A DNA stretch of 32,000 bases, taken from contig CALSTM010000003.1 of the NCBI GenBank assembly GCA_943789275.1, positions 90,001 to 122,000 of the forward strand. Direction: 5' to 3'. This DNA comes from Candidatus Poseidoniaceae archaeon (lineage in GTDB: Archaea > Thermoplasmatota > Poseidoniia > Poseidoniales > Poseidoniaceae). Below, piece by piece: positions 6,467 to 17,517 of the stretch (its first letter is position 1; each line of letters opens with the position of its first letter). The position numbers and the translations under genes are program-made. The notes under the pieces are model-generated. The model was not told where the DNA came from. It did no database searches and saw only the letters and a list, made by a program, of their open reading frames with translations.

Positions 6467-9400
6467 ATGACAATAACACGTGTAGAAGTGACGCCAAAAC
6501 AAGGGGCTGGAATGCGTGATGTCCGTGGCGATGTTGTGCGGCGACAACTCAAAGCAGACCACGGAATTGATGTTACCGAAGTGCGAAGCATAACCGGCTT
6601 TCTGATTAAATCATCCGTACCATCTTCAGATATTTCCGCACGAGTTGACGATTTGTTTTCCGACCCGATTATCGAAGATGCCGTAACAGACACCCTCTTT
6701 CTCACCTCACCTCATCATTTTCCAACTGTTCCTGACGCTGCAATCACTGTTGGTTTCAAACCCGGAGTGACTGATAACCCAGGTAGTGCGGCTTACGACG
6801 GCTTTCGAACCCTCTTCCCTCAACCAGAACCACTGGAAGATGCCTCGGTTTCGACCTATCAAACGTATATTTTCTACGGGCTCCCCGATGGAACCACCGC
6901 AGAATGGCTTGCATCGACCCTTCACAATAATCTCATTCAACGAGCAGTTGTTTCTGATATCGGCGCATGTACTCAGTCACAGTGGCCTGCAATTGACTAT
7001 CCTGAAAAACCACCTCAGACGTTTACTCCACCCCAAGCCATGGATTTGGAAATATCAGATGAAGCCCTCATCGACATGTCTGAATCAGGCCTTCTTGCGC
7101 TTAATCTCGAAGAGATGCAAACAATCCAAGGGCATTATCGAGATGCTGCCGTACAATCGTCTCGAGCAGCAGTAGGGATTGTTGGAAACGCCCCAACAGA
7201 TGTCGAACTTGAGTGTCTTGCCCAAACGTGGAGCGAACACTGTAAACACAAAATTTTCGCATCAAAGATTCATCACATCGATTCCGAGACTGGCGAAGAC
7301 AGCATCATCGATTCAATTTTCAAAACCCACATCATGAAACCAACCCACGATATGCAAAAAGAAGTCGACTGGCTTCTTTCCGTATTCCATGATAACTCTG
7401 GCGTCATCGCTTGGGATGAAAATTGGAGTGTTTGCATGAAGGCAGAAACCCACAACTCACCATCTGCACTGGACCCTTACGGGGGCGCAATGACGGGAAT
7501 TGTCGGAGTTAATCGCGATATTTTGGGAACGGGTCTTGGCGCACGACCAATAGCGAATACCGATGTGTTTTGCTTCGGCCCACCGAATTGGGAAGGCGAT
7601 TTACCAGACAATCTCTTCCACCCTTCACGGGTTCTCCGAGGCGTTCACGCAGGTGTTCGCGTTGGTGGAAACGAGTCCGGCATCCCTACTGTGAACGGAG
7701 CAATAGTGTTCGATGACCGTTACATCGGTAAACCGCTCGTTTATTGCGGCACGGTCGGCATCATGCCACGTTTGCTCCCCGATGGCCGTGAATCTCACAT
7801 CAAGACCCCTACAGCAGGTGATATTGTCTACATGGTCGGCGGAAGAGTCGGCTACGATGGCATTCACGGAGCGACGTTTTCATCGCTTGAACTGACTGAA
7901 GAATCACCTTCAAGCGCCGTTCAAATCGGCGATCCGATTACCCAAAAGAAAATGCTCGACATGGTTCTTGAAGCCCGTGATGCAGGACTGATTACTTGCA
8001 TTACCGATAACGGTGCAGGAGGACTTTCTTCTTCGATTGGAGAAATGGCAGAATACACCAACGGTTGCGAAATTGATTTGGCAAAAGTCCCGCTTAAACA
8101 GCCAGGTTTGTCTGCATGGGAAATACTTGTTTCCGAAAGTCAAGAGCGAATGACAATTGCAGTAAAACCATCAGATTGTTCTGCATTTGAAGCCATGGCC
8201 GACCTCCATGAAGTTGAAGCCACACCGGTTGCAACATTCACCAGCAGTGGAATGTTTCATGTCAAATACAACGACGATACAGTAGCCTACCTCCCCATTG
8301 AATTCCTTCATGACGGTGTCCCTCAACTCCAACTCGAATCCGAATGGCATACCCCACAACCAGCATTATTCAACCCCTCAACCATTGTTTTAGATGAAGA
8401 TGAAAACCACTCTCCCCTTCTCTTGAAGATGCTTGCACGACCAAACATTGCCTCCAAAGAGTCATGGGTTCGCCAATACGACCATGAGGTCATCGCTCAA
8501 ACTGCGGTCAAACCGTTCGTTGGTATTGAACGAGATGGCCCTGGTGACGCAGGCGTCATTGCCCCGATTCACGGCGACCCACACGGATTGGTAATTTCAT
8601 GCGGTATTGCGCCTCGTTATTCAGACCTCGATGCCGGCGCTATGGCAGCAGCTTCCATTGACGAAGCCGTTCGAAACGCAGTATGTGCGGGTGTTGATGT
8701 CGACAAAATGGCAGGATTGGATAATTTCTGCTGGCCAGATTCAATTGAATCGGCCAAAACCCCAGACGGTAAATTCAAACTCGCCCAACTCGTTCGAGCA
8801 AACAGAGAATTGGAACGGGTATGCCGAGCGTACAGACTCCCCTGTATTTCAGGTAAAGACTCTATGAAAAACGACTACGGGAGTGGAGAGAATAAGATTT
8901 CAATTCCACCAACCCTGCTTTATTCGGTCTTCGGCGATCAACCTGATGTACGTTTTACCGCTACAAGCGACTTCAAGGGCGCAGGCGAACGCGTTTACCT
9001 TGTTGGCGTCTCCAAAGAAGAACTCGGGGCTTCCGAACTTGCGTTCATGCTCAAAGAAAGCGGCCATTCAGAAGGCATTGGCGGGCAAGTTCCTTTACTG
9101 CCAAACCCCGAGCAAAACATTACCACATATCGCGCCCTTTCTACGGCTATTCACGCCGGGCTTGTCCAAACTGCTCACGATTGTTCCGAAGGCGGATTGG
9201 CAGTTGCTGCAGCCGAGATGTGTATCGGTGGGAGAGTTGGGGCAGAATTAGACATTGATGGAACCGGTCACTCAAGCGTTTGGTCTCGTCTTTGGGGCGA
9301 ATCACTTGGACGATTCATCATCGGTGTTCAACCCGAGCATGAAGCGGACTTTGTCGAATGGATGTCAGGGCACCCTCTCACTTTCCTTGGAACGGTAACC

Positions 9401-10372: not shown

Positions 10373-11410
10373 ATGTCACAAACGCTGCGAATCCCACACA
10401 TTGATTCCCTCCGAGGCCTCGCAGTACTTCTTATGGTGATGGTCCATGCGGCAGCGACATGGAATCCATTTGATCAAGTTCAACTGACTCCATTAGCCTA
10501 CATTGTCTCGGGGCTAGGCGGGCTGGCAGCCCCTCTTTTCGTTACTCTCTTTGGGTGGGGTATTGCAAGAGGGAGAATGACGGCCAAACAACGCTTGTTC
10601 CAAGCCGTGTTTCTTTTGATTGCACAAATTGGAGTCAACATGACCTCTCCACATCTGTTTCATTTCTTGACACCAGGTATTCTGTCGCTTATGGCCATCT
10701 TAACGCTCATACTCCCACCTCTTATCGAGAGAGTGAATTTATCCGATGCACGTTTTTTTTCAATGACTGTAGGAATCACATTTGCCCTACAGATGTTGAT
10801 TCCAGAACTTCAAGGGACGGGTGTTTGGTCGGATCACATTTCAGATGAGGCCCCGTCAACGGTCGTCTCAAATCTCTTTTTCACAGGCACTTACCCCGTG
10901 TTTCCATGGTTTCTCTTCGCCCTTTTAGGGGCTGTTGTCTCTCAACAAACATTCTCTGAAGGCCAATCATTGCCCTACACGCCACGGGTTGGTTATTCAG
11001 TCTCAATTGGGGTGCTGTTCTGTATAGCTACCCTTTTGCACTCACAAATGAACGATTTGCTTTGGGCTCATCCTACAGCAGATGCAACCCTTACCTTTTT
11101 TCCAGCAAATCCTCCATTTCTAATTGCAGGAATGACGGGCGTCGTACTGTTGTGGTTGCTCATCCAGCGTTTTGGATTCTTTTTCCTGAACAGTACGGGT
11201 AAGTTGTCTTTGACAATATACCTCATTCATTTCGTGCCCCTAACACTGATGCGTGACTTTGAGGTCACGCACCAGTGGGGATTACAAACATCGACTTTAG
11301 CAGTACTCCTGTACACTTTGGCTTGGATTCCAGTCGCAACACTTTGGTTGCGCCGCTACCCAAGGGCTAGTGCGGAGAACGTTCTGCGGGCGATTCGAAA
11401 ATCACTCTGA
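10373..11410 (+). CDS. polytopic membrane protein, DUF1624 / acyltransferase-3-like family
   Basis: 345 aa with about 9-10 hydrophobic segments. The N-terminal IDSLRGLAVLLMVMVHA is typical of the DUF1624 / heparan-glucosaminide N-acetyltransferase-like family. The family call is from memory of that motif only. Confidence 0.6.
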   Translation: MSQTLRIPHIDSLRGLAVLLMVMVHAAATWNPFDQVQLTPLAYIVSGLGGLAAPLFVTLFGWGIARGRMTAKQRLFQAVFLLIAQIGVNMTSPHLFHFLTPGILSLMAILTLILPPLIERVNLSDARFFSMTVGITFALQMLIPELQGTGVWSDHISDEAPSTVVSNLFFTGTYPVFPWFLFALLGAVVSQQTFSEGQSLPYTPRVGYSVSIGVLFCIATLLHSQMNDLLWAHPTADATLTFFPANPPFLIAGMTGVVLLWLLIQRFGFFFLNSTGKLSLTIYLIHFVPLTLMRDFEVTHQWGLQTSTLAVLLYTLAWIPVATLWLRRYPRASAENVLRAIRKSL

Positions 11411-12226
11411 AGCAGCAAGTGCTTCGGTTGCTTTCTTAGCACCCATCCATGCAACAACACCGAAACCGATCTTGTTGATGATGTCTGCAATGTTGTAAGC
11501 AACAGCCATGTATTCTGCACCGTTATCAACTTCAATCAATTCGACTTCAGGGCTGAAGAGGTAGCCAAGAGGGTAGATGATCCAGCCGACGACAATGAAC
11601 CAGCGTAGTGCGTTAGCGCTCCAGAGGAGTTCTTCTGAAATCTTGCTGTTGTCAACGCCAAGCCCAGAGGACCAAGGAGTACCTGTTGCAACGACAATCA
11701 TTGCCCATCCCATGCCACCAAGTAGGAGTGCGAGGATACCGTTCATCAAACCTGCTTCACCAGCATATCCAAATCCAATCATGATAAGCGCACCGAGGAA
11801 ACAGATTCCAGTGAATCCGAGTCCAGCGAACTTTGCATCGGTAATCGCGCCCTTTCCGACGAGGGACGGGAATTTGAGAGCCATCAATGGGACGGTGATA
11901 ATCCAATCCATGTATCGGTATTCAACGGAGACTTCACCGAAATCTGCGTAAACTCCGCGCATGTAGTAGTAGTGGAATGCAGCAATACCTACAATCAATG
12001 CTGAAATGGTCATTGTTGTTCGGTATTGTGGGGCAACGTTACTTCGCTCACTCATGAAGAAAACGAATGCTGCACCCATGGCGATGTATCCTACAAAGAA
12101 GAGGAAGAAAGTCAATGTTTGCAGACCATCATCAACCTTCCGATAGGAAGGCTGGGAATCCGGTCTCTGCGTCCATTTCGCCGAAGCGGTCCAGCAGCAG
12201 AAACTGTGGACGCCATGCGAGGGCAA
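11402..12226 (-). CDS. proteorhodopsin-type microbial rhodopsin (D-T-K motif, Met at tuning position)
   Basis: Helix C RYMDWIITVPLMALKF and helix G YNIADIINKIGFG with the Schiff-base Lys codon at 11471..11473. Seven hydrophobic helices. The 5' end is uncertain: the only in-frame start-type codons upstream of helix A are TTG 12226 and TTG 12115 (see findings). Confidence 0.85.
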   Translation of the reverse strand: MPSHGVHSFCCWTASAKWTQRPDSQPSYRKVDDGLQTLTFFLFFVGYIAMGAAFVFFMSERSNVAPQYRTTMTISALIVGIAAFHYYYMRGVYADFGEVSVEYRYMDWIITVPLMALKFPSLVGKGAITDAKFAGLGFTGICFLGALIMIGFGYAGEAGLMNGILALLLGGMGWAMIVVATGTPWSSGLGVDNSKISEELLWSANALRWFIVVGWIIYPLGYLFSPEVELIEVDNGAEYMAVAYNIADIINKIGFGVVAWMGAKKATEALAASE

Positions 12227-12375: not shown

Positions 12376-14244
12376 TCAAGTTATTTTACCGGTTTGAACC
12401 GCCCACATCCTCGAATAAAGGCCTTTTAATTGTACCAAATAATCATGAGAACCGTCTTCAGCAATTTCTCCGTTGTTAAGGACGAGAATTCTGTCCGCAT
12501 TTCTTACTGTAGAGAGCCTGTGTGCGATAATTACGGCCGTCCTCCCTTTTGACAACTTTTCAATCGAGCGCTGGAGTGCAGCCTCAGTTTCGTTATCAAC
12601 TGCGGAAGTTGCTTCATCTAAAAGCAGCAATGGCGCATCCTTGAGAACGGCTCTTGCAATAGCAAGCCGTTGCCGCTGACCCCCAGAAAGTCTGTGCCCA
12701 CCTTCGCCAACGAGGGTACTCCATTTATCTGGAAGCTCTTCAACGAATTCCACAACCTCTGCCAATTGAGCAGCTTCCAAAACCTGTTCATCGTCTGCCT
12801 CCGGCCGCCCGTAGCGGATGTTTTCCAATATCGTTGTTGGGAACAACGTGATGTGTTGGTCGACTAAAGCCATCGACGAGCGCAGTCGCTGTAAATTCCA
12901 TTCAGGCAGCGTTCTTCCAGCCCATGAAACGGATCCACCGTTCGGTTCAGCAAAGCGTAGCAGTAAACGAATCAACGTTGTTTTTCCTGCGCCCGTTGAA
13001 CCGACGACCCCAACTGTTTGTCCTTGAACCAGTTCGAGATTCATGTTCTCAAATACGGGCTCTCTACCAGGATATGCAAAATTGAGGTCAGTGAAAACGA
13101 TCGACGATTGCTCTATTGTTTGGTCGTCCGGTGAAAAATCACCTTGTTCGACTTCAGTGGGCGAAGTCAAAACATCGAGGACGCGGGTCGAACTCGCCAT
13201 TGCTCGTTGGTACAAATCAAATGTCTCCCCGAGTCTTGTGAGCGGCCAAAGTAGGCGTTGAGTCATGAAGACAAGTACTGAATATGCGCCCACAGCAAGC
13301 GTACCGTCCAACGTCATCCATCCACCCAGCAGCAGTGTAGCAGTAAATCCACAGAGGATTGCCATCCGAATTAAGGGTGTGAATGCTGCAGAAAGTCGAA
13401 TCGCCTCTCTGTTTGCTTCCCGGTAATGGTTACTGAGCGCTTCAACCCGTTTCATCTCTCTTTCCTCAGCAGTGAACGATTGAATGGTAGACATTCCTGA
13501 AAGGTCGTTTTCAAGTAGCGCATTCATTGCTCCAGCAGACTTTCTTACCTCTGCATACCTTGGTTCAAGGCTTCTCTGATACTTGAACGACCCCCAAATG
13601 ATGATTGGTATTGGCAATACAGCGAACAATGCAACCTGCCAAGAAATGAACAAGAACACGCCACCAACAACGATAACAGTGGTGCTAACCTGTAACAAAT
13701 CGTTGGCACCTTTATCCAAGAACCGTTCGAGTTGATTTATATCGTCATTGAGGATAGCCAAAATGTCACCTTTCTGCCGCTCATCAAACCATCCCATGCC
13801 TTGTTTTTGCACGTGGTTGAAAGTATCTAGGCGCAACTCATGTTGCACAGTCTGTGCAAGGTTTCTCCACAAGATTCCATAGAAATATTCGAACAGCGAC
13901 TCCAACCCCCAAATGGCGAAGGTGAGCACTGAAAGGAAGACCAGTTGGTGCCACGGATCGACCAGACCATAAGACGCTAGAAACGACTCTTCCTTGAGAA
14001 CAACAACATCAACTGCCAATCCAATGAGGAGCGGTGGGGCCAAATCCCATATTTTATTTGTAATCGAACATGCTGACGCTAAACGAATCGTGCCTCTGTG
14101 AGAACCCATGTGCCCAAGCAGGCGTCGAAATGGTCCAACTTCCGTCACAACTCCGCTACTTCGAGGAGGTATGAGAAGTCTATGCACGCCATTTTCGAAC
14201 CCTTTTGATGCGTAACCCCTATGCTGTGCCCGTTGAACGGTCAT
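12376..14244 (-). CDS. ABC exporter, fused permease/ATPase (MsbA/MdlB-type)
   Basis: Six-TM N-terminal half. Walker A GSTGAGKTT, signature LSGGQRQRLAIARA, Walker B LLLLDEATSAVD, H-loop IIAHRLST. An alternative GVVTEV -> GTG start at 14148 would give a typical MTEVGPFRRLLGHM... N-terminus. Confidence 0.9.
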   Translation of the reverse strand: MTVQRAQHRGYASKGFENGVHRLLIPPRSSGVVTEVGPFRRLLGHMGSHRGTIRLASACSITNKIWDLAPPLLIGLAVDVVVLKEESFLASYGLVDPWHQLVFLSVLTFAIWGLESLFEYFYGILWRNLAQTVQHELRLDTFNHVQKQGMGWFDERQKGDILAILNDDINQLERFLDKGANDLLQVSTTVIVVGGVFLFISWQVALFAVLPIPIIIWGSFKYQRSLEPRYAEVRKSAGAMNALLENDLSGMSTIQSFTAEEREMKRVEALSNHYREANREAIRLSAAFTPLIRMAILCGFTATLLLGGWMTLDGTLAVGAYSVLVFMTQRLLWPLTRLGETFDLYQRAMASSTRVLDVLTSPTEVEQGDFSPDDQTIEQSSIVFTDLNFAYPGREPVFENMNLELVQGQTVGVVGSTGAGKTTLIRLLLRFAEPNGGSVSWAGRTLPEWNLQRLRSSMALVDQHITLFPTTILENIRYGRPEADDEQVLEAAQLAEVVEFVEELPDKWSTLVGEGGHRLSGGQRQRLAIARAVLKDAPLLLLDEATSAVDNETEAALQRSIEKLSKGRTAVIIAHRLSTVRNADRILVLNNGEIAEDGSHDYLVQLKGLYSRMWAVQTGKIT

Positions 14245-15067: not shown

Positions 15068-16333
15068 TCAATCTTCGTCTTCAAAGACGGCAGGATCTCC
15101 TGAGCCGCCAGGCGATGGAGGGCGTACGCCGTCGACATCCATTCCCGGCTCAATAGCGGTTTCATTCACTTCAAGAGAAACTCTTCCACCATCGGCTAGT
15201 TTTGCCATGTCATCGGTGGCGGGGGTAGAAAGCTTCCTTTCCATGTCTGGAGCATTGCTGTAAGCATCCCGCTTCGCTTCACGAGCATCGTGCGTACGAA
15301 CCAATGAAAGGGAGTCAGCAAAGACTCTTCCAACAACTTCTCGGGTCCGCTCTCCCCTCCGAACAGAATCCAATTCATGGACCATCGTCTCTCGTTGTCC
15401 TTCGAGTTCACGCAATTCAGCAGTTCGGTCTTGAAGTGCGGCCTCCATATCCGTGAGTGTAAGTGTGATTTGTTGAATGCGCTCGTCCCGTTCGAAGACA
15501 TCGTTATGCAATCTTCTCTCACGTCGTCGCAATGAATCGTATTCTCGGTTGCGTTCAAGCAATCTTCGCTTCAACTCATCAATTTGTTCAACCAGATAAT
15601 CGTGTTCTGCAGACACGGAACGTGGCCCTTGCATGACCCGCTCAAGTTGTTCTTCGAGTTCTCCCAAACGCCCATCCCGGGCATCCAAGAGGCCACGGAG
15701 GCGGTCCGCAATATCTCGCAGCCGTTGTCGCTCCTCTTCGAGAGCTTTGTTCGCCGCTTGCTCAGCGTCATTCTGAGCCAGAGCAGTATCGAGTTGAGCC
15801 TTCAACCGACGTACTTCCTCAGCCGTGACCGAGGTGAGTCCAGCATCAGCGGCTCTTTCGAGAGCCTCAACCATCTGCGTGATACGGCCTTCCATTTCAC
15901 CAATAACATCGTCTTGCTGTGTGGTTAAGGTCCTCAATTGTTCGACTTCTACGGCAGACGCTGCGCGTTCTTCATGCGACAAGGAAGATTGCTGTGAAGC
16001 CAACTCTTCACGAACATCACCCAATAATCGTTCAAGGTGAATCACTTTTGCTTCACTCTCTTGAAGGGCTGAGTCAGTCTCTGCTAAGCGAGCGACTTCG
16101 GGTGCAACCATGTCTTCACGTTCTGCCAAATCGAGTTCGAGAACACGTAAACGTTGCTTGACCGAAACCATTTCTTCATTCCGAGCAGCAAGCTCATTCC
16201 AGGCAATCAGAACCTCTTCGACCAGTTGCTCAACAGGATAACCCTTGAGCATCCCCTCGAGAGCTGCACGCTCATCTCCACTTGCATCACCAATTCGGTT
16301 GATTCCACTTGTTCCGGAAGAGTCGAGCGTCAT
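15068..16333 (-). CDS. 421-aa coiled-coil protein with acidic C-terminal tail (hypothetical)
   Basis: Long uninterrupted E/R/L/Q/A-rich sequence with heptad-like character from about residue 30 to 340. Gly/Ser-rich N-terminus. C-terminus PPSPGGSGDPAVFEDED. Same strand as the actin-like gene and 94 nt downstream of it. Confidence 0.75.
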   Translation of the reverse strand: MTLDSSGTSGINRIGDASGDERAALEGMLKGYPVEQLVEEVLIAWNELAARNEEMVSVKQRLRVLELDLAEREDMVAPEVARLAETDSALQESEAKVIHLERLLGDVREELASQQSSLSHEERAASAVEVEQLRTLTTQQDDVIGEMEGRITQMVEALERAADAGLTSVTAEEVRRLKAQLDTALAQNDAEQAANKALEEERQRLRDIADRLRGLLDARDGRLGELEEQLERVMQGPRSVSAEHDYLVEQIDELKRRLLERNREYDSLRRRERRLHNDVFERDERIQQITLTLTDMEAALQDRTAELRELEGQRETMVHELDSVRRGERTREVVGRVFADSLSLVRTHDAREAKRDAYSNAPDMERKLSTPATDDMAKLADGGRVSLEVNETAIEPGMDVDGVRPPSPGGSGDPAVFEDED

Positions 16334-16427
16334 ACAAGCGGCTATCGCCGCACAACCACACTTGAACTTTCGCCATCATAAGGAGACTTAGATGGCTGGT
16401 TTTCCACCCTAAGAGCGAGTCCGGCAA

Positions 16428-17432
16428 TCAGTTGATTGCTGTGAACATATCGTCTGGCATTTCGCCAGCGAGTTGAAGAGCGCCAGTAGCAACAGCATTG
16501 ATTGGGTCATCGACACACCATACATTGACATCTCCAATGTCCGAAATCTCGTCAGCCATTCGGGCAGCGATGCCTTCGATGAGGGAACCTCCGCCTGAAA
16601 GGATGATGTTGTTGCGAAGAATAGGTTGGTATTCAGGGTCAGCGCCAGCAACGATTCGCTTGATTGCGTTACCGATCTTCGGAACAATGAGTTCACATGC
16701 CTTATTGACCAAATCGCCAATGTCGACAACTTGCTTCTTACCTTCTACGGAAAGTTCGACCATTGCTTCACGGTCGTCAGCACCGACATAGGATACTTCT
16801 TCCTTCCACTTTCGGACCATGTCCTTTGTGACTTGAGCGCCGGTGTACTTCTTTCGAATAAGTTCCATGAGCTCGTTATCCAACCAGTCTCCAGCTTCTT
16901 GGATTGTGACTTGGTCTTCATCGGTTGGGAACGTTCCGTAAATACGGGCAATGTCTGTTGTTCCTGCACCGATATCGACGACGATTGAACTTGCAATTTC
17001 ACCGATTCCGAAGGCGGTTGCGAACGGTTCTGTGACGACCATAATGGCGTTGACTTGTCCACGGAGGGTAGCAACAAGGTTGGATTTATCTGTGAATGAA
17101 ACGTGACTTGGGGAACAGATGACGCCGAAAACTTCGTCGAATTCTTCAGGGTCTACAGTTTCCAAGAGATGGGAAACGAATGCCTTAGCAGCTGCAAGGT
17201 TTGCTTCATCGTCTTGAGCAACACCAGCAGCCATTGGGCGGTAAAGGTTGCAGGCGAGTTTGTTTTTGAGGGCGTCGTTGCCAAACAAAACATCTCGGCC
17301 GAGGAAGTTTCGTGCGACCGGGTCCTTTGGACGTCCGACGACAGTTTCGATTGTGTGGCTGATTCCAGCACTTGATGCAATTGTAGATTGGTAGGTACCC
17401 AGGTCGATTCCAACGTATAGACGGTCACTCAT
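16428..17432 (-). CDS. MamK-family actin-like ATPase
   Basis: Phosphate-1 motif YVGIDLGT, phosphate-2 motif IVVDIGAGTTDI, adenosine motif IILSGGGS. MamK-like strings include VVGRPKDPVA, LYRPMAAGV, TFPTDEDQVT, DPEYQPILRNN and CVDDP. The ATG at 17432 is preceded by a GGAAGGTGA SD with 5-nt spacing. Confidence 0.8.
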   Translation of the reverse strand: MSDRLYVGIDLGTYQSTIASSAGISHTIETVVGRPKDPVARNFLGRDVLFGNDALKNKLACNLYRPMAAGVAQDDEANLAAAKAFVSHLLETVDPEEFDEVFGVICSPSHVSFTDKSNLVATLRGQVNAIMVVTEPFATAFGIGEIASSIVVDIGAGTTDIARIYGTFPTDEDQVTIQEAGDWLDNELMELIRKKYTGAQVTKDMVRKWKEEVSYVGADDREAMVELSVEGKKQVVDIGDLVNKACELIVPKIGNAIKRIVAGADPEYQPILRNNIILSGGGSLIEGIAARMADEISDIGDVNVWCVDDPINAVATGALQLAGEMPDDMFTAIN

Positions 17433-17437
17433 ATTCT

Positions 17438-17446
17438 TCACCTTCC
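17438..17446 (-). promoter_or_regulatory. Shine-Dalgarno-like site (GGAAGGTGA) of the actin-like gene
   Basis: Read directly on the minus strand as gcGGAAGGTGAagaatATG. It is complementary to the conserved 16S 3' tail core (CACCUCC-type). Confidence 0.55.
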
Positions 17447-17511
17447 GCATTGCGGATATGTCGCCGAGGATGCCACCACCCTTCAAGGTTCACCTTCGAT
17501 TGAATTGCCAG

Positions 17512-17517
17512 TTTAAA
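17512..17517 (-). promoter_or_regulatory. candidate TATA box (TTTAAA) upstream of the actin-like gene
   Basis: It lies in the 113-nt gap between the protease stop and the actin-like start, ~80 nt upstream of the ATG. This would imply a ~55-nt leader carrying the SD. Confidence 0.3.

Follow-up and report, generated by a model that had tools for sequence, protein, structure and literature searches.

The gene pair described here lies on a chromosome of an uncultured member of Poseidoniales (Marine Group II, MGII), the most abundant archaea of the surface ocean. Both genes are encoded on the minus strand of the 32-kb stretch of DNA that was analyzed (hereafter, the window). The first (16428..17432) encodes actin A, a MamK-like actin-fold ATPase of 334 residues counted from the ATG, assigned from profiles, a PDB match and an AF2 model. 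A TTG start would lengthen this frame to 352 residues; most orthologues have 334. The second (15068..16333) encodes a segmented coiled-coil partner protein of 421 residues (CC), which is an orphan specific to Poseidoniales. They are separated by a 94-nt spacer (16334..16427) whose length is held across loci. Both reading frames lie where an initial reading of the letters without database searches (the sequence-only reading) had placed them, and the archaeal neighbors that it had listed, GGGPS/PcrB, ribosomal LX and prefoldin, are present; further neighbors are an S8 protease, an ABC transporter, a rhodopsin and FtsY. Magnetosome genes (mam, mad) are absent from the window, as had also been claimed, and no mam genes were found in the related loci examined. 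Neither mreCD nor rodA was found near the actin A gene, and centromere-like repeat arrays, which were sought near the locus, were not found.

A promoter-type box, GGTGAACCTTGAAG, lies 48 nt before the actin A ATG (17481..17494, minus strand). It is conserved in an alignment of 19 orthologous loci, with the consensus GGTGAACCTT[G/C]AAG, and is also present in L081, a locus discussed below. The TTTAAA box at 17510–17515, originally proposed for this gene, lacks conservation across the orthologous loci. The proposed Shine-Dalgarno sequence, GGAAGGTGA (17438..17446, minus strand), is borne out: its GGTGA core is conserved, with unchanged spacing, in almost every orthologous locus. Single-sequence folding suggests a candidate hairpin in the 5′ leader, TCCGC-AAT-GCGGA, abutting this site (17444..17456, minus strand). 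Such a hairpin is predicted singly in most loci with differing stems (TGCCC/GGGCA in L018, GCGCA/TGCGT in L023), and folding of the alignment with alifold gave no consensus leader hairpin and no statistical support.

Within the spacer, conservation is highest (17 loci) in a second promoter-type box, GAAAGTTCAAG, which lies 27 nt ahead of the ATG of CC (16361..16371, minus strand). This distance fits a leaderless mRNA, and no oligo-T terminator was seen in the 94-nt spacer. In L081, whose CC gene is 4 kb away from the actin gene, the box is kept as GAAGCATTCAAG. As CC has a promoter-type box of its own, the pair does not necessarily form one operon and co-transcription is not required. The window contains three exact matches to GAANNTTSAAG, of which two precede the actin A and CC genes. 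This pattern was considered as a module-specific operator and rejected: three matches also arise in 12 of 100 shuffles, and similar, looser TTSAAG boxes are found upstream of several other window genes. It is better read as the local promoter type.

The motifs GIDLGT, VVDIGAGTTDI and LSGGGS, from which the actin fold had been recognized, are confirmed in actin A, and the MamK strings that had been cited for comparison match true MamK sequence (PDB 5jyg) residue for residue. The top NCBIfam family is MamK (NF040964; 338.8 bits, E 3e-101), with residues 5–332 aligned to profile positions 1–329 of 335, followed by BeeR (NF053558; 213.5 bits against a cut-off of 530) and MreB (88 bits). The top PDB match is MamK 5jyg (E 2e-63), compared to an E-value of 5e-14 for MreB. 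Judged from sequence comparison, the affinity to MamK is far above chance. The MreB models score well under their cut-offs (NF010539, 88.5 versus 293; TIGR00904, 77.9 versus 366; MreBH, 72.9 versus 515), as do the salactin model NF053533 (33.8 versus 400) and, narrowly, PF25229 (26.6 versus 27.1); ParM models give only 12–22 bits, and the MamK profile is far above Hsp70 as well. The top Pfam match, and the only MreB model whose threshold is passed, is MreB_Mbl (PF06723; 94.9 bits), a broad family covering MamK as well as MreB. The assignment to the MamK family therefore stands in a broad sense only: at 339 bits, actin A is below the curated NF040964 cut-off of 400 bits and in a Poseidoniales clade apart from magnetosome MamK. 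By comparison, a genuine MamK scores 533 bits, and relatives from Omnitrophota, KSB1 and Sulfobium score 412–424 bits.

The AF2 model of actin A (pLDDT 90.5) has the MamK filament subunit 5ljv as its top match in a Foldseek search, and superposes onto 5ljv_A with TM-scores of 0.94/0.96 and an rmsd of 1.5 Å over 325 columns. With only 5 residues ahead of the first strand, the protein lacks an N-terminal extension. Motifs for phosphate-1, phosphate-2, adenosine and the catalytic Glu are all present. The ATP-binding and catalytic residues D10, G12, T13, E135, D153, G155–T158 and G280–S283 are conserved, with those for catalysis and phosphate binding invariant. The position of the non-polymerizing MamK mutation A278D was considered as an indicator of polymerization and dropped. 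It is occupied by proline in actin A, aspartate in actin B (see below) and Ser, Lys, Glu, Asn or Gln elsewhere, and this variability across the family permits no inference from the residue found there.

A neighbor-joining (NJ) tree with 200 bootstraps does not place actin A with MreB, which is the outgroup. MGII genomes contain a second MamK-like actin, the paralogue actin B, located beside a different orphan partner with a zinc ribbon. The A and B groups each have 100% support and their union 96%; the KSB1-type sister group is weak (61%). MamK of AMB-1 falls in a different sub-clade from the Poseidoniales actins. Since the NJ backbone is unresolved, we limit the claim to these actins not grouping specifically with MamK. 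Many non-magnetotactic lineages carry MamK-like proteins, and no CC homologues were found beside the distant MamK-like genes of Planctomycetota, Omnitrophota, Nitrospirota and Methanoperedens; the wider family shows no general tendency towards coiled-coil neighbors. The nearest relatives outside MGII (KSB1-type, P0243–P0256) carry N-terminal extensions of 190–900 residues with their own conserved helical domain. These extensions show homology neither to CC nor to the zinc-ribbon partner, and a Rosetta-stone relationship was rejected.

The coiled-coil nature of CC is confirmed by its long AF2 helices and by a heptad power of 0.85, compared to 0.19 ± 0.06 for shuffled sequences. Four helices (residues 34–117, 120–163, 171–235 and 240–357) form helical rods in the AF2 model, together with a small C-terminal element; residues 1–17 and 398–421 are predicted to be disordered. 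The protein is strongly acidic, with a net charge of −37. Searches of Pfam, NCBIfam and PDB gave no family above noise (best E-value of the CC profile against PDB, 0.056), no DNA-binding domain was detected in the family and PDB searches, and no homologue is detectable outside Poseidoniales. SMC/Rad50 models match only through their coiled-coil regions (18–26 bits versus cut-offs of 567–1000), and an ABC-type ATPase head domain is absent, which sets CC apart from SMC/Rad50-like proteins.

CC orthologues are 48–99% identical and nearly all 417–426 residues long. Behind a variable, disordered N-terminus (conservation 0.52), an N-terminal motif, ERAALEGMLKGYPxEQLVEEVL (residues 21–50; 16184..16273, minus strand), has a mean column conservation of 0.87 in 25 orthologues. 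The most conserved core, including a GPRS helix break (residues 201–345; 15299..15733, minus strand), reaches a mean of 0.82–0.92 across MGIIa and MGIIb, which is above the expectation for a mere spacer rod. The orthologue alignment also contains a conserved, predicted disordered tail behind a variable linker, PPSPGGSGDPAVFEDED (residues 405–421; 15071..15121, minus strand). In MGIIa, the tail follows the pattern PGG[ST]GDP-hydrophobic-[FY]-acidic; in MGIIb, it reads PGGTAPATM[VI]DIDDDPE; and in L081, it is PGGSAVPAVVDEK with a basic run. The conservation of these three regions far exceeds the needs of a rod.

The two genes are tightly linked. Among loci whose actin is at least 73% identical and whose sequence extends far enough, all 26 have CC directly downstream of actin A and in the same orientation; this set spans Poseidoniaceae and Thalassarchaeaceae. 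Of 28 orthologous loci, drawn from both MGII families, 27 have a spacer of 83–102 nt. In contrast, the distances flanking the pair range from 114 to 1955 nt (S8 to actin) and from −1 to 1452 nt (CC to GGGPS); insertions reach about 1.9 kb and occur on both sides, but in those 27 loci never between the two genes. Two rare lineages depart from this adjacency. L081 still has a CC orthologue (E 5e-165), parted from the actin gene by a 4-kb insertion, and in L028/L029/L083, a lineage of low GC, no CC was found within 6–10 kb of actin A. Evolutionary rates of actin A and CC covary with r = 0.93, the highest among all pairs, and with a partial r of 0.71 (p = 2e-4) when GGGPS is controlled. The partial r for actin A and GGGPS is 0.66, so that this covariation is positive and not discriminating for the actin A-CC pair.

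The tests suggested in the sequence-only reading that were carried out here, by profiles, structure, phylogeny and synteny, all came out in its favor, with the qualifications given above. We propose, with reasonable though far from complete confidence, that actin A and CC constitute a chromosomal actin-like filament module conserved throughout the order Poseidoniales, consisting of an ATP-polymerizing actin and a filament-associated coiled-coil protein. Actin A, a MamK-like ATPase, most likely polymerizes with ATP into filaments: it closely resembles the MamK filament subunit in sequence and structure, and its residues for nucleotide binding and catalysis are intact. There is a precedent in BeeR, which is related to MamK more distantly and polymerizes with ATP (PMC11929497). 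CC most likely forms a long, segmented coiled coil, probably as a dimer, and associates with these filaments, which it would cross-link or regulate, or for which it would serve as an adaptor. Its conserved termini would make the contact, and the prime candidate is the PGG-hydrophobic-acidic C-terminal tail behind the variable linker, which may act by analogy to arcadin-2 with crenactin or ParR with ParM; the tails of both bind the actin groove (PMC5173319). The polymerization, the physical interaction and the cellular role are all what we infer from these similarities. To what extent shape could be involved can be judged from the cells themselves: archaea, to our knowledge, have no peptidoglycan, and in 0.7-μm cocci without such a wall, intracellular organization (the placement or segregation of some cellular component, or support of division) would be likelier than rod-shape determination. 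The size and shape of MGII cells, cocci of about 0.7 μm, are from PMC6864105.

Known systems provide partial parallels. MamK (NF040964; PDB 5jyg/5ljv) is the best family over the full length, at about 35% identity, and actin A shares its subdomain architecture, has no insertions and retains the ATPase residues. It differs in belonging to a Poseidoniales-only clade and in its archaeal host without magnetosome genes, and CC is unrelated to MamJ, McaA/B or Mad proteins. BeeR of Verrucomicrobiota (PDB 8r2n; PMC11929497) is likewise a MamK relative outside magnetotactic bacteria, conserved lineage-wide and of unknown function. However, it is more distant from actin A (TM-score 0.87), has a disordered N-terminal extension, forms three-stranded tubes and has no described dedicated coiled-coil partner. 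Crenactin and the arcadins, from the ‘arcade’ cluster of Thermoproteales (PMC5173319), represent another archaeal actin gene beside lineage-specific partners. Arcadin-2 resembles the CC tail in having a conserved C-terminal peptide after a non-conserved linker, which binds the hydrophobic groove of the actin, and arcadin-4 is a coiled-coil protein of SMC/Rad50-like type. In contrast to actin A, crenactin belongs to the eukaryote-like actin branch rather than the MamK/MreB-like branch, and its hosts are rods whereas MGII are cocci; CC shows no detectable sequence homology to the arcadins, and its Rad50/SMC matches are at noise level. In deep-branching magnetotactic bacteria, MamK and Mad28 act together with soluble coiled-coil Mad proteins, which interact with the MamK-type actin and organize a cellular structure (PMC12748827). 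Unlike CC, these are bacterial, comprise several different coiled-coil proteins within magnetosome gene clusters and have no homology to CC detected by family libraries. Salactin and volactin of haloarchaea (PMC10746226, PMC10869688) are archaeal actins of the MreB/MamK-like branch, from a different lineage and with no equivalent coiled-coil partner known.

Actin A and CC could instead be mere neighbors in a conserved chromosome stretch, with actin A forming filaments or acting on its own and CC performing an unrelated job such as chromosome organization or membrane scaffolding. The S8-actin-CC-GGGPS block is syntenic as a whole, and part of the adjacency may thus stem from a general conservation of gene order. 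The separate promoter-type box and probable leaderless mRNA of CC, the lineages in which the pair is parted or no CC lies near the actin gene, and the distant MamK-like genes devoid of such partners all agree with independence. Against this, insertions flank the pair and never enter it in 27 of 28 loci from two families, the CC family is confined to the lineage that has actin A, and the two proteins have the top distance correlation. Paralogue B also keeps a dedicated neighbor, suggesting that partner-pairing is the rule for these actins. We consider mere proximity unlikely.

Less probable still is chromosome or DNA segregation of the ParMRC or salactin type, in which actin A filaments would move DNA and CC would be the filament-DNA adaptor. 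The actin-then-adaptor gene order matches parM-parR, coccoid cells make a role in shape unlikely, and salactin, whose nearest reported subfamily is MamK, affects DNA partitioning (PMC10746226). Public pipelines label CC a ‘chromosome segregation ATPase’, but this label derives solely from coiled-coil similarity to SMC (26 bits versus cut-offs of at least 567). The weak ParM scores, the lack of a detected DNA-binding adaptor domain in CC and of repeat arrays near the locus do not agree with ParMRC-type membership, and the strongly acidic character of CC also argues against a DNA adaptor.

JGI and NCBI name actin A ‘rod shape-determining protein MreB’, and its top Pfam match agrees with this name; an MreB orthologue setting rod shape is, however, very improbable and already contradicted by the profile scores (73–88 bits on NCBIfam MreB models, 339 on MamK), the PDB matches, the outgroup position of MreB and coccoid cells lacking peptidoglycan. 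A genuine magnetosome MamK, which would imply that MGII have magnetosomes or remnants of them, would explain why MamK is the best-matching family and structure, and is contradicted here to the point of being virtually dismissed by the missing mam genes, the score under the cut-off, the clade separate from MamK of AMB-1 and the occurrence of such proteins in many non-magnetotactic lineages.

No description of the actin A-CC pair was found in the literature searched, and the filament module that we favor is probably an undescribed internal filament system in tiny round cells. The theme of an actin with a lineage-specific adaptor is already known, and the pair alone resolves no long-standing question. 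The finding extends the MamK/BeeR actin branch into planktonic archaea and indicates that ‘MreB’ annotations in MGII genomes are misleading. A core-genome actin, its orphan partner and a second paralogous system offer expressible targets for polymerization, structure and heterologous imaging. Coccoid hosts also provide a counter-example to the reviewed correlation of archaeal actins with rod shape (PMC7613921). More tentatively, Poseidoniales may possess an ancient, lineage-specific actin cytoskeleton made of a pair of paralogous MamK-like filament systems that arose by duplication ahead of the MGIIa/MGIIb split. Each would have its own invented partner (a coiled coil for A, a double zinc ribbon for B), and in 0.7-μm cocci the two would serve central functions of the cell cycle, such as segregating chromosomes or positioning the division site. 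If this possibility is true, a two-system cytoskeleton in cocci would break the accepted rule that links archaeal actins to elongated shape.

The gene for the actin-fold ATPase (actin A; 16428–17432, minus strand, 334-aa product) is followed, after a gap of 94 nt on the same strand, by that for the coiled-coil protein (CC; 15068–16333, minus strand, 421-aa product), and both ORFs sit where the sequence-only reading had placed them. As most actin A orthologues are exactly 334 aa long, the ATG at 17432 is favored over an upstream TTG. Other genes in the window encode TauE, MoeA, a pseudouridine synthase, UvrA, PurL/PurQ, a rhodopsin, an ABC exporter, GGGPS/PcrB, a 1075-aa S8 protease, ribosomal LX, prefoldin, FtsY, OMP decarboxylase and glutamine synthetase; the window contains no tRNA and, as claimed earlier, no magnetosome genes. 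Close homologues of actin A and CC lie on contigs labeled Poseidoniales, Poseidoniaceae or Thalassarchaeaceae, and the locus belongs to unremarkable chromosomal sequence of a Marine Group II (MGII) archaeon. The bacteriorhodopsin-family gene (11402–12226, minus strand), located 3 kb from the actin A–CC module, is of the proteorhodopsin type expected for MGII and is consistent with a photic-zone host. The GGGPS ORF as listed has a TTG start and a 40-nt overlap with the end of a convergent-looking ABC gene (14205–14244); since orthologue alignments begin only at residues 14–18, its true start is probably further downstream.

Actin A matches only the broad MreB_Mbl family in Pfam (94.9 bits); the NCBIfam models discriminate among actin subfamilies. 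It scores 338.8 bits over its full length with the MamK model (E 3e-101, cut-off 400), compared to 213.5 bits for BeeR (cut-off 530), 73–88 bits for the MreB models (cut-offs 293–515), 34 bits for Salactin (cut-off 400) and 22 bits for ParM (cut-off 417). Thus, actin A is nearer to MamK than to MreB or ParM, as had been proposed from MamK-type strings, whose MamK counterparts agree with PDB 5jyg in alignment. Searches of PDB sequences gave E-values of 2e-63 for MamK, 4e-39 for BeeR, 5e-14 for MreB and ∼1e-8 for eukaryotic actins. The AF2 model of actin A, based on a 40-sequence alignment, is confident (pLDDT 90.5, pTM 0.87), and Foldseek matches it best to 5ljv_A, the MamK subunit in its filament state (TM 0.94/0.96, rmsd 1.5 Å, 35% identity), followed by monomeric MamK, BeeR (TM 0.87), actins and MreB. 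Family alignments show no variation at the phosphate-binding, adenosine and catalytic-Glu positions.

An assignment to MamK proper was rejected, since the 339 bits of actin A fall below the 400-bit cut-off, compared to 533 for genuine MamK. On the same model, relatives from Omnitrophota, KSB1 and Sulfobium score 412–424 bits, those from Planctomycetota and Methanoperedens 393–399, and ANME-2 371. When 1.84 billion cluster representatives were searched exhaustively, the family proved to be small (132 representatives at E ≤ 1e-30), and in it the whole MGII group is essentially one 50%-identity cluster. In a distance-based neighbor-joining tree (130 sequences, 333 columns, 200 bootstraps, MreB outgroup), the Poseidoniales actin A orthologues form a single clade (100%), sister (96%) to that of a second Poseidoniales paralogue (100%). 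Bacterial proteins of the KSB1 type, which have long N-terminal extensions, are weakly sister to both (61%), while AMB-1 MamK and BeeR fall in other sub-clades of an unresolved backbone. The below-cut-off score and the tree placement indicate that actin A is a distinct archaeal subfamily within the broad MamK/BeeR-like branch and not an orthologue of magnetosome MamK. In the nearest non-archaeal relatives (P0243–P0256, one labeled candidate division KSB1), the MamK-like domain is fused behind 190–900 aa. This extension has a conserved helical domain of ∼90 aa at its N-terminus, a long disordered region that is acidic and rich in proline, and a basic patch directly ahead of the actin domain; no homology to either MGII partner protein was seen in it.

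The coiled-coil nature of CC, also part of the sequence-only reading, is borne out by a hydrophobic heptad periodicity of 0.85, compared to 0.19 ± 0.06 for shuffles and 0.14–0.34 for controls (actin, GGGPS, S8), and by its AF2 model (pLDDT 73). The model consists of four long helices (residues 34–117, 120–163, 171–235 and 240–357), whose breaks coincide with the conserved motifs AGLTSVTAEE and GPRS, a low-confidence β/α element (364–393), and predicted disordered ends (1–17 and 398–421). No family in Pfam, NCBIfam or the PDB rises above generic coiled-coil noise, which is all that lies behind the name “chromosome segregation ATPase” in public databases. Mean column conservation among 25 orthologues is 0.52 for the variable N-terminus (1–20), 0.87 for the ERAALEGMLKGYPxEQLVEEVL motif (21–50), 0.82–0.92 for the core (201–345), 0.63 for the linker (346–400) and 0.72 for the conserved tail (401–421), which ends PGG-[ST]-G-D-P-hydrophobic-[FY]-acidic or, in Thalassarchaeaceae-type loci, PGGTAPATM[VI]DIDDDPE. 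A short conserved terminal peptide after a variable linker is likewise how arcadin-2 binds the hydrophobic groove of crenactin, and ParR that of ParM (PMC5173319).

On balance, we favor a model, inferred in its polymerization, interaction and function, in which actin A would assemble an ATP-driven filament and CC would bind it as a cross-linker, adaptor or regulator, the conserved CC termini being the likely contact points. DNA segregation similar to ParMRC is possible but unlikely, since CC has no detectable DNA-binding domain, this adaptor is very acidic (net charge −37), and centromere repeats were not found near the locus. Under the filament–partner model, positioning, segregation or division support would be a more likely cellular role than rod-shape determination. 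MGII cells lack peptidoglycan. As they are also 0.7-µm cocci (PMC6864105), the annotation “rod shape-determining MreB” is implausible.

That actin A and CC are merely neighbors seems unlikely. Among the 80 loci returned by a survey of one genome per species, CC lies directly downstream on the same strand in all 26 Poseidoniales loci with actin identity of at least 73% and enough downstream sequence, Ca. Thalassarchaeum and Poseidonia included, which favors the synteny that the earlier reading had proposed to check. The actin–CC spacer is 83–102 nt in 27/28 loci (the one exception stems from a start-calling artefact), whereas the flanks vary from 114 to 1955 nt (S8 to actin) and from −1 to 1452 nt (CC to GGGPS); thus, insertions occur on either side of the pair, not inside. 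In L081, a rare lineage with 57% GC, ∼4 kb of genes (MsrA, VIT1, others) separate actin (1610–2614) from CC (6570–7826), which is retained beside GGGPS (56% identity; profile E 5e-165) and whose tail closes with a basic run, KKSKRKSKKK, in place of the acidic one. A low-GC lineage (L028, L029 and L083; 35% GC, actin 64–65% identical) has MsrA after actin, and no CC was detected within 6–10 kb, profile search included. Profile searches found no CC homologues beside distant MamK-like genes, and coiled-coil neighbors are not a family-wide trait. Pairwise-distance covariation peaks for actin–CC (r = 0.93; partial r given GGGPS = 0.71, p = 2e-4) and is supportive only, since the control A–GGGPS partial r given S8 is also 0.66.

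The second Poseidoniales actin, paralogue B, is 44–49% identical to actin A (358 bits on the MamK model), and at least six MAGs with actin A also hold it on another contig. In 24/24 B loci there is a 352-aa orphan protein that carries zinc-ribbon motifs at its two ends, and in 23 it is encoded directly upstream on the same strand (for example, L038, 4799–5857 and 5995–7017; also L031–L060). Dedicated lineage-specific neighbors are therefore the rule for both Poseidoniales actins, which strengthens their reading as functional partners. Some clearly Poseidoniales contigs (L016, L030, L048 and L039), with actin A 74–87% identical or paralogue B plus partner, carry bacterial names (Verrucomicrobiales MAG ARS100, “Deltaproteobacteria” SAG AH-558-G13, Yoonia sp. 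MAG) and are probably mis-binned or mislabeled.

The TTTAAA box earlier assigned to the actin gene is not conserved in orthologous loci. A promoter-type box, GGTGAACCTT[G/C]AAG (17481–17494, minus strand), is conserved 48 nt before the ATG; the leader after it contains a small hairpin and a conserved GGTGA Shine-Dalgarno, the latter an element that the earlier reading had called strong. The 5-bp hairpin (TCCGC-AAT-GCGGA; 17444–17456, minus strand) adjoins the Shine-Dalgarno; its stems vary in sequence, yet pairing holds in many orthologous loci (TGCCC/GGGCA, GCGCA/TGCGT), and an alignment-based consensus fold gave nothing. A related box, GAA[A/G]GTTCAAG (16361–16371, minus strand), is positioned 27 nt ahead of the CC ATG, a distance that suits a leaderless mRNA. 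Both boxes are also kept in L081, with its separated genes. As looser TTSAAG boxes precede other window genes and the paralogue has a CTTCATAAA box ahead of it, they look like a local promoter type. Boxes of the CTT[G/C]AAG or GTTCAAG type, conserved across orthologous loci, occur 25–56 nt upstream of several start codons, also those of UvrA, ABC, prefoldin, RR and HTH-CBS genes, and are possibly the promoter (TATA-equivalent) consensus of the lineage. No oligo-T terminator was seen in the actin–CC spacer, and the two genes may share one transcript, have separate ones, or both.

Our literature search found nothing combining MamK with Poseidoniales, although subscription journals could hold a description, and the MGII genome papers searched do not mention actin, MreB or cytoskeleton. 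MamK-type actins are absent from a review of archaeal cell biology, which ties archaeal actins to elongated shape (PMC7613921). MamK has been reported to be the closest match for salactin (PMC10746226). Clusters that combine an actin with partner proteins have already been described, both archaeal (crenactin with arcadins) and bacterial (MamK with Mad proteins, PMC12748827), as have MamK relatives in bacteria that are not magnetotactic (BeeR, PMC11929497). What is new here is a subfamily of MamK-like actins in archaea whose predicted coiled-coil partner is lineage-specific and non-homologous.
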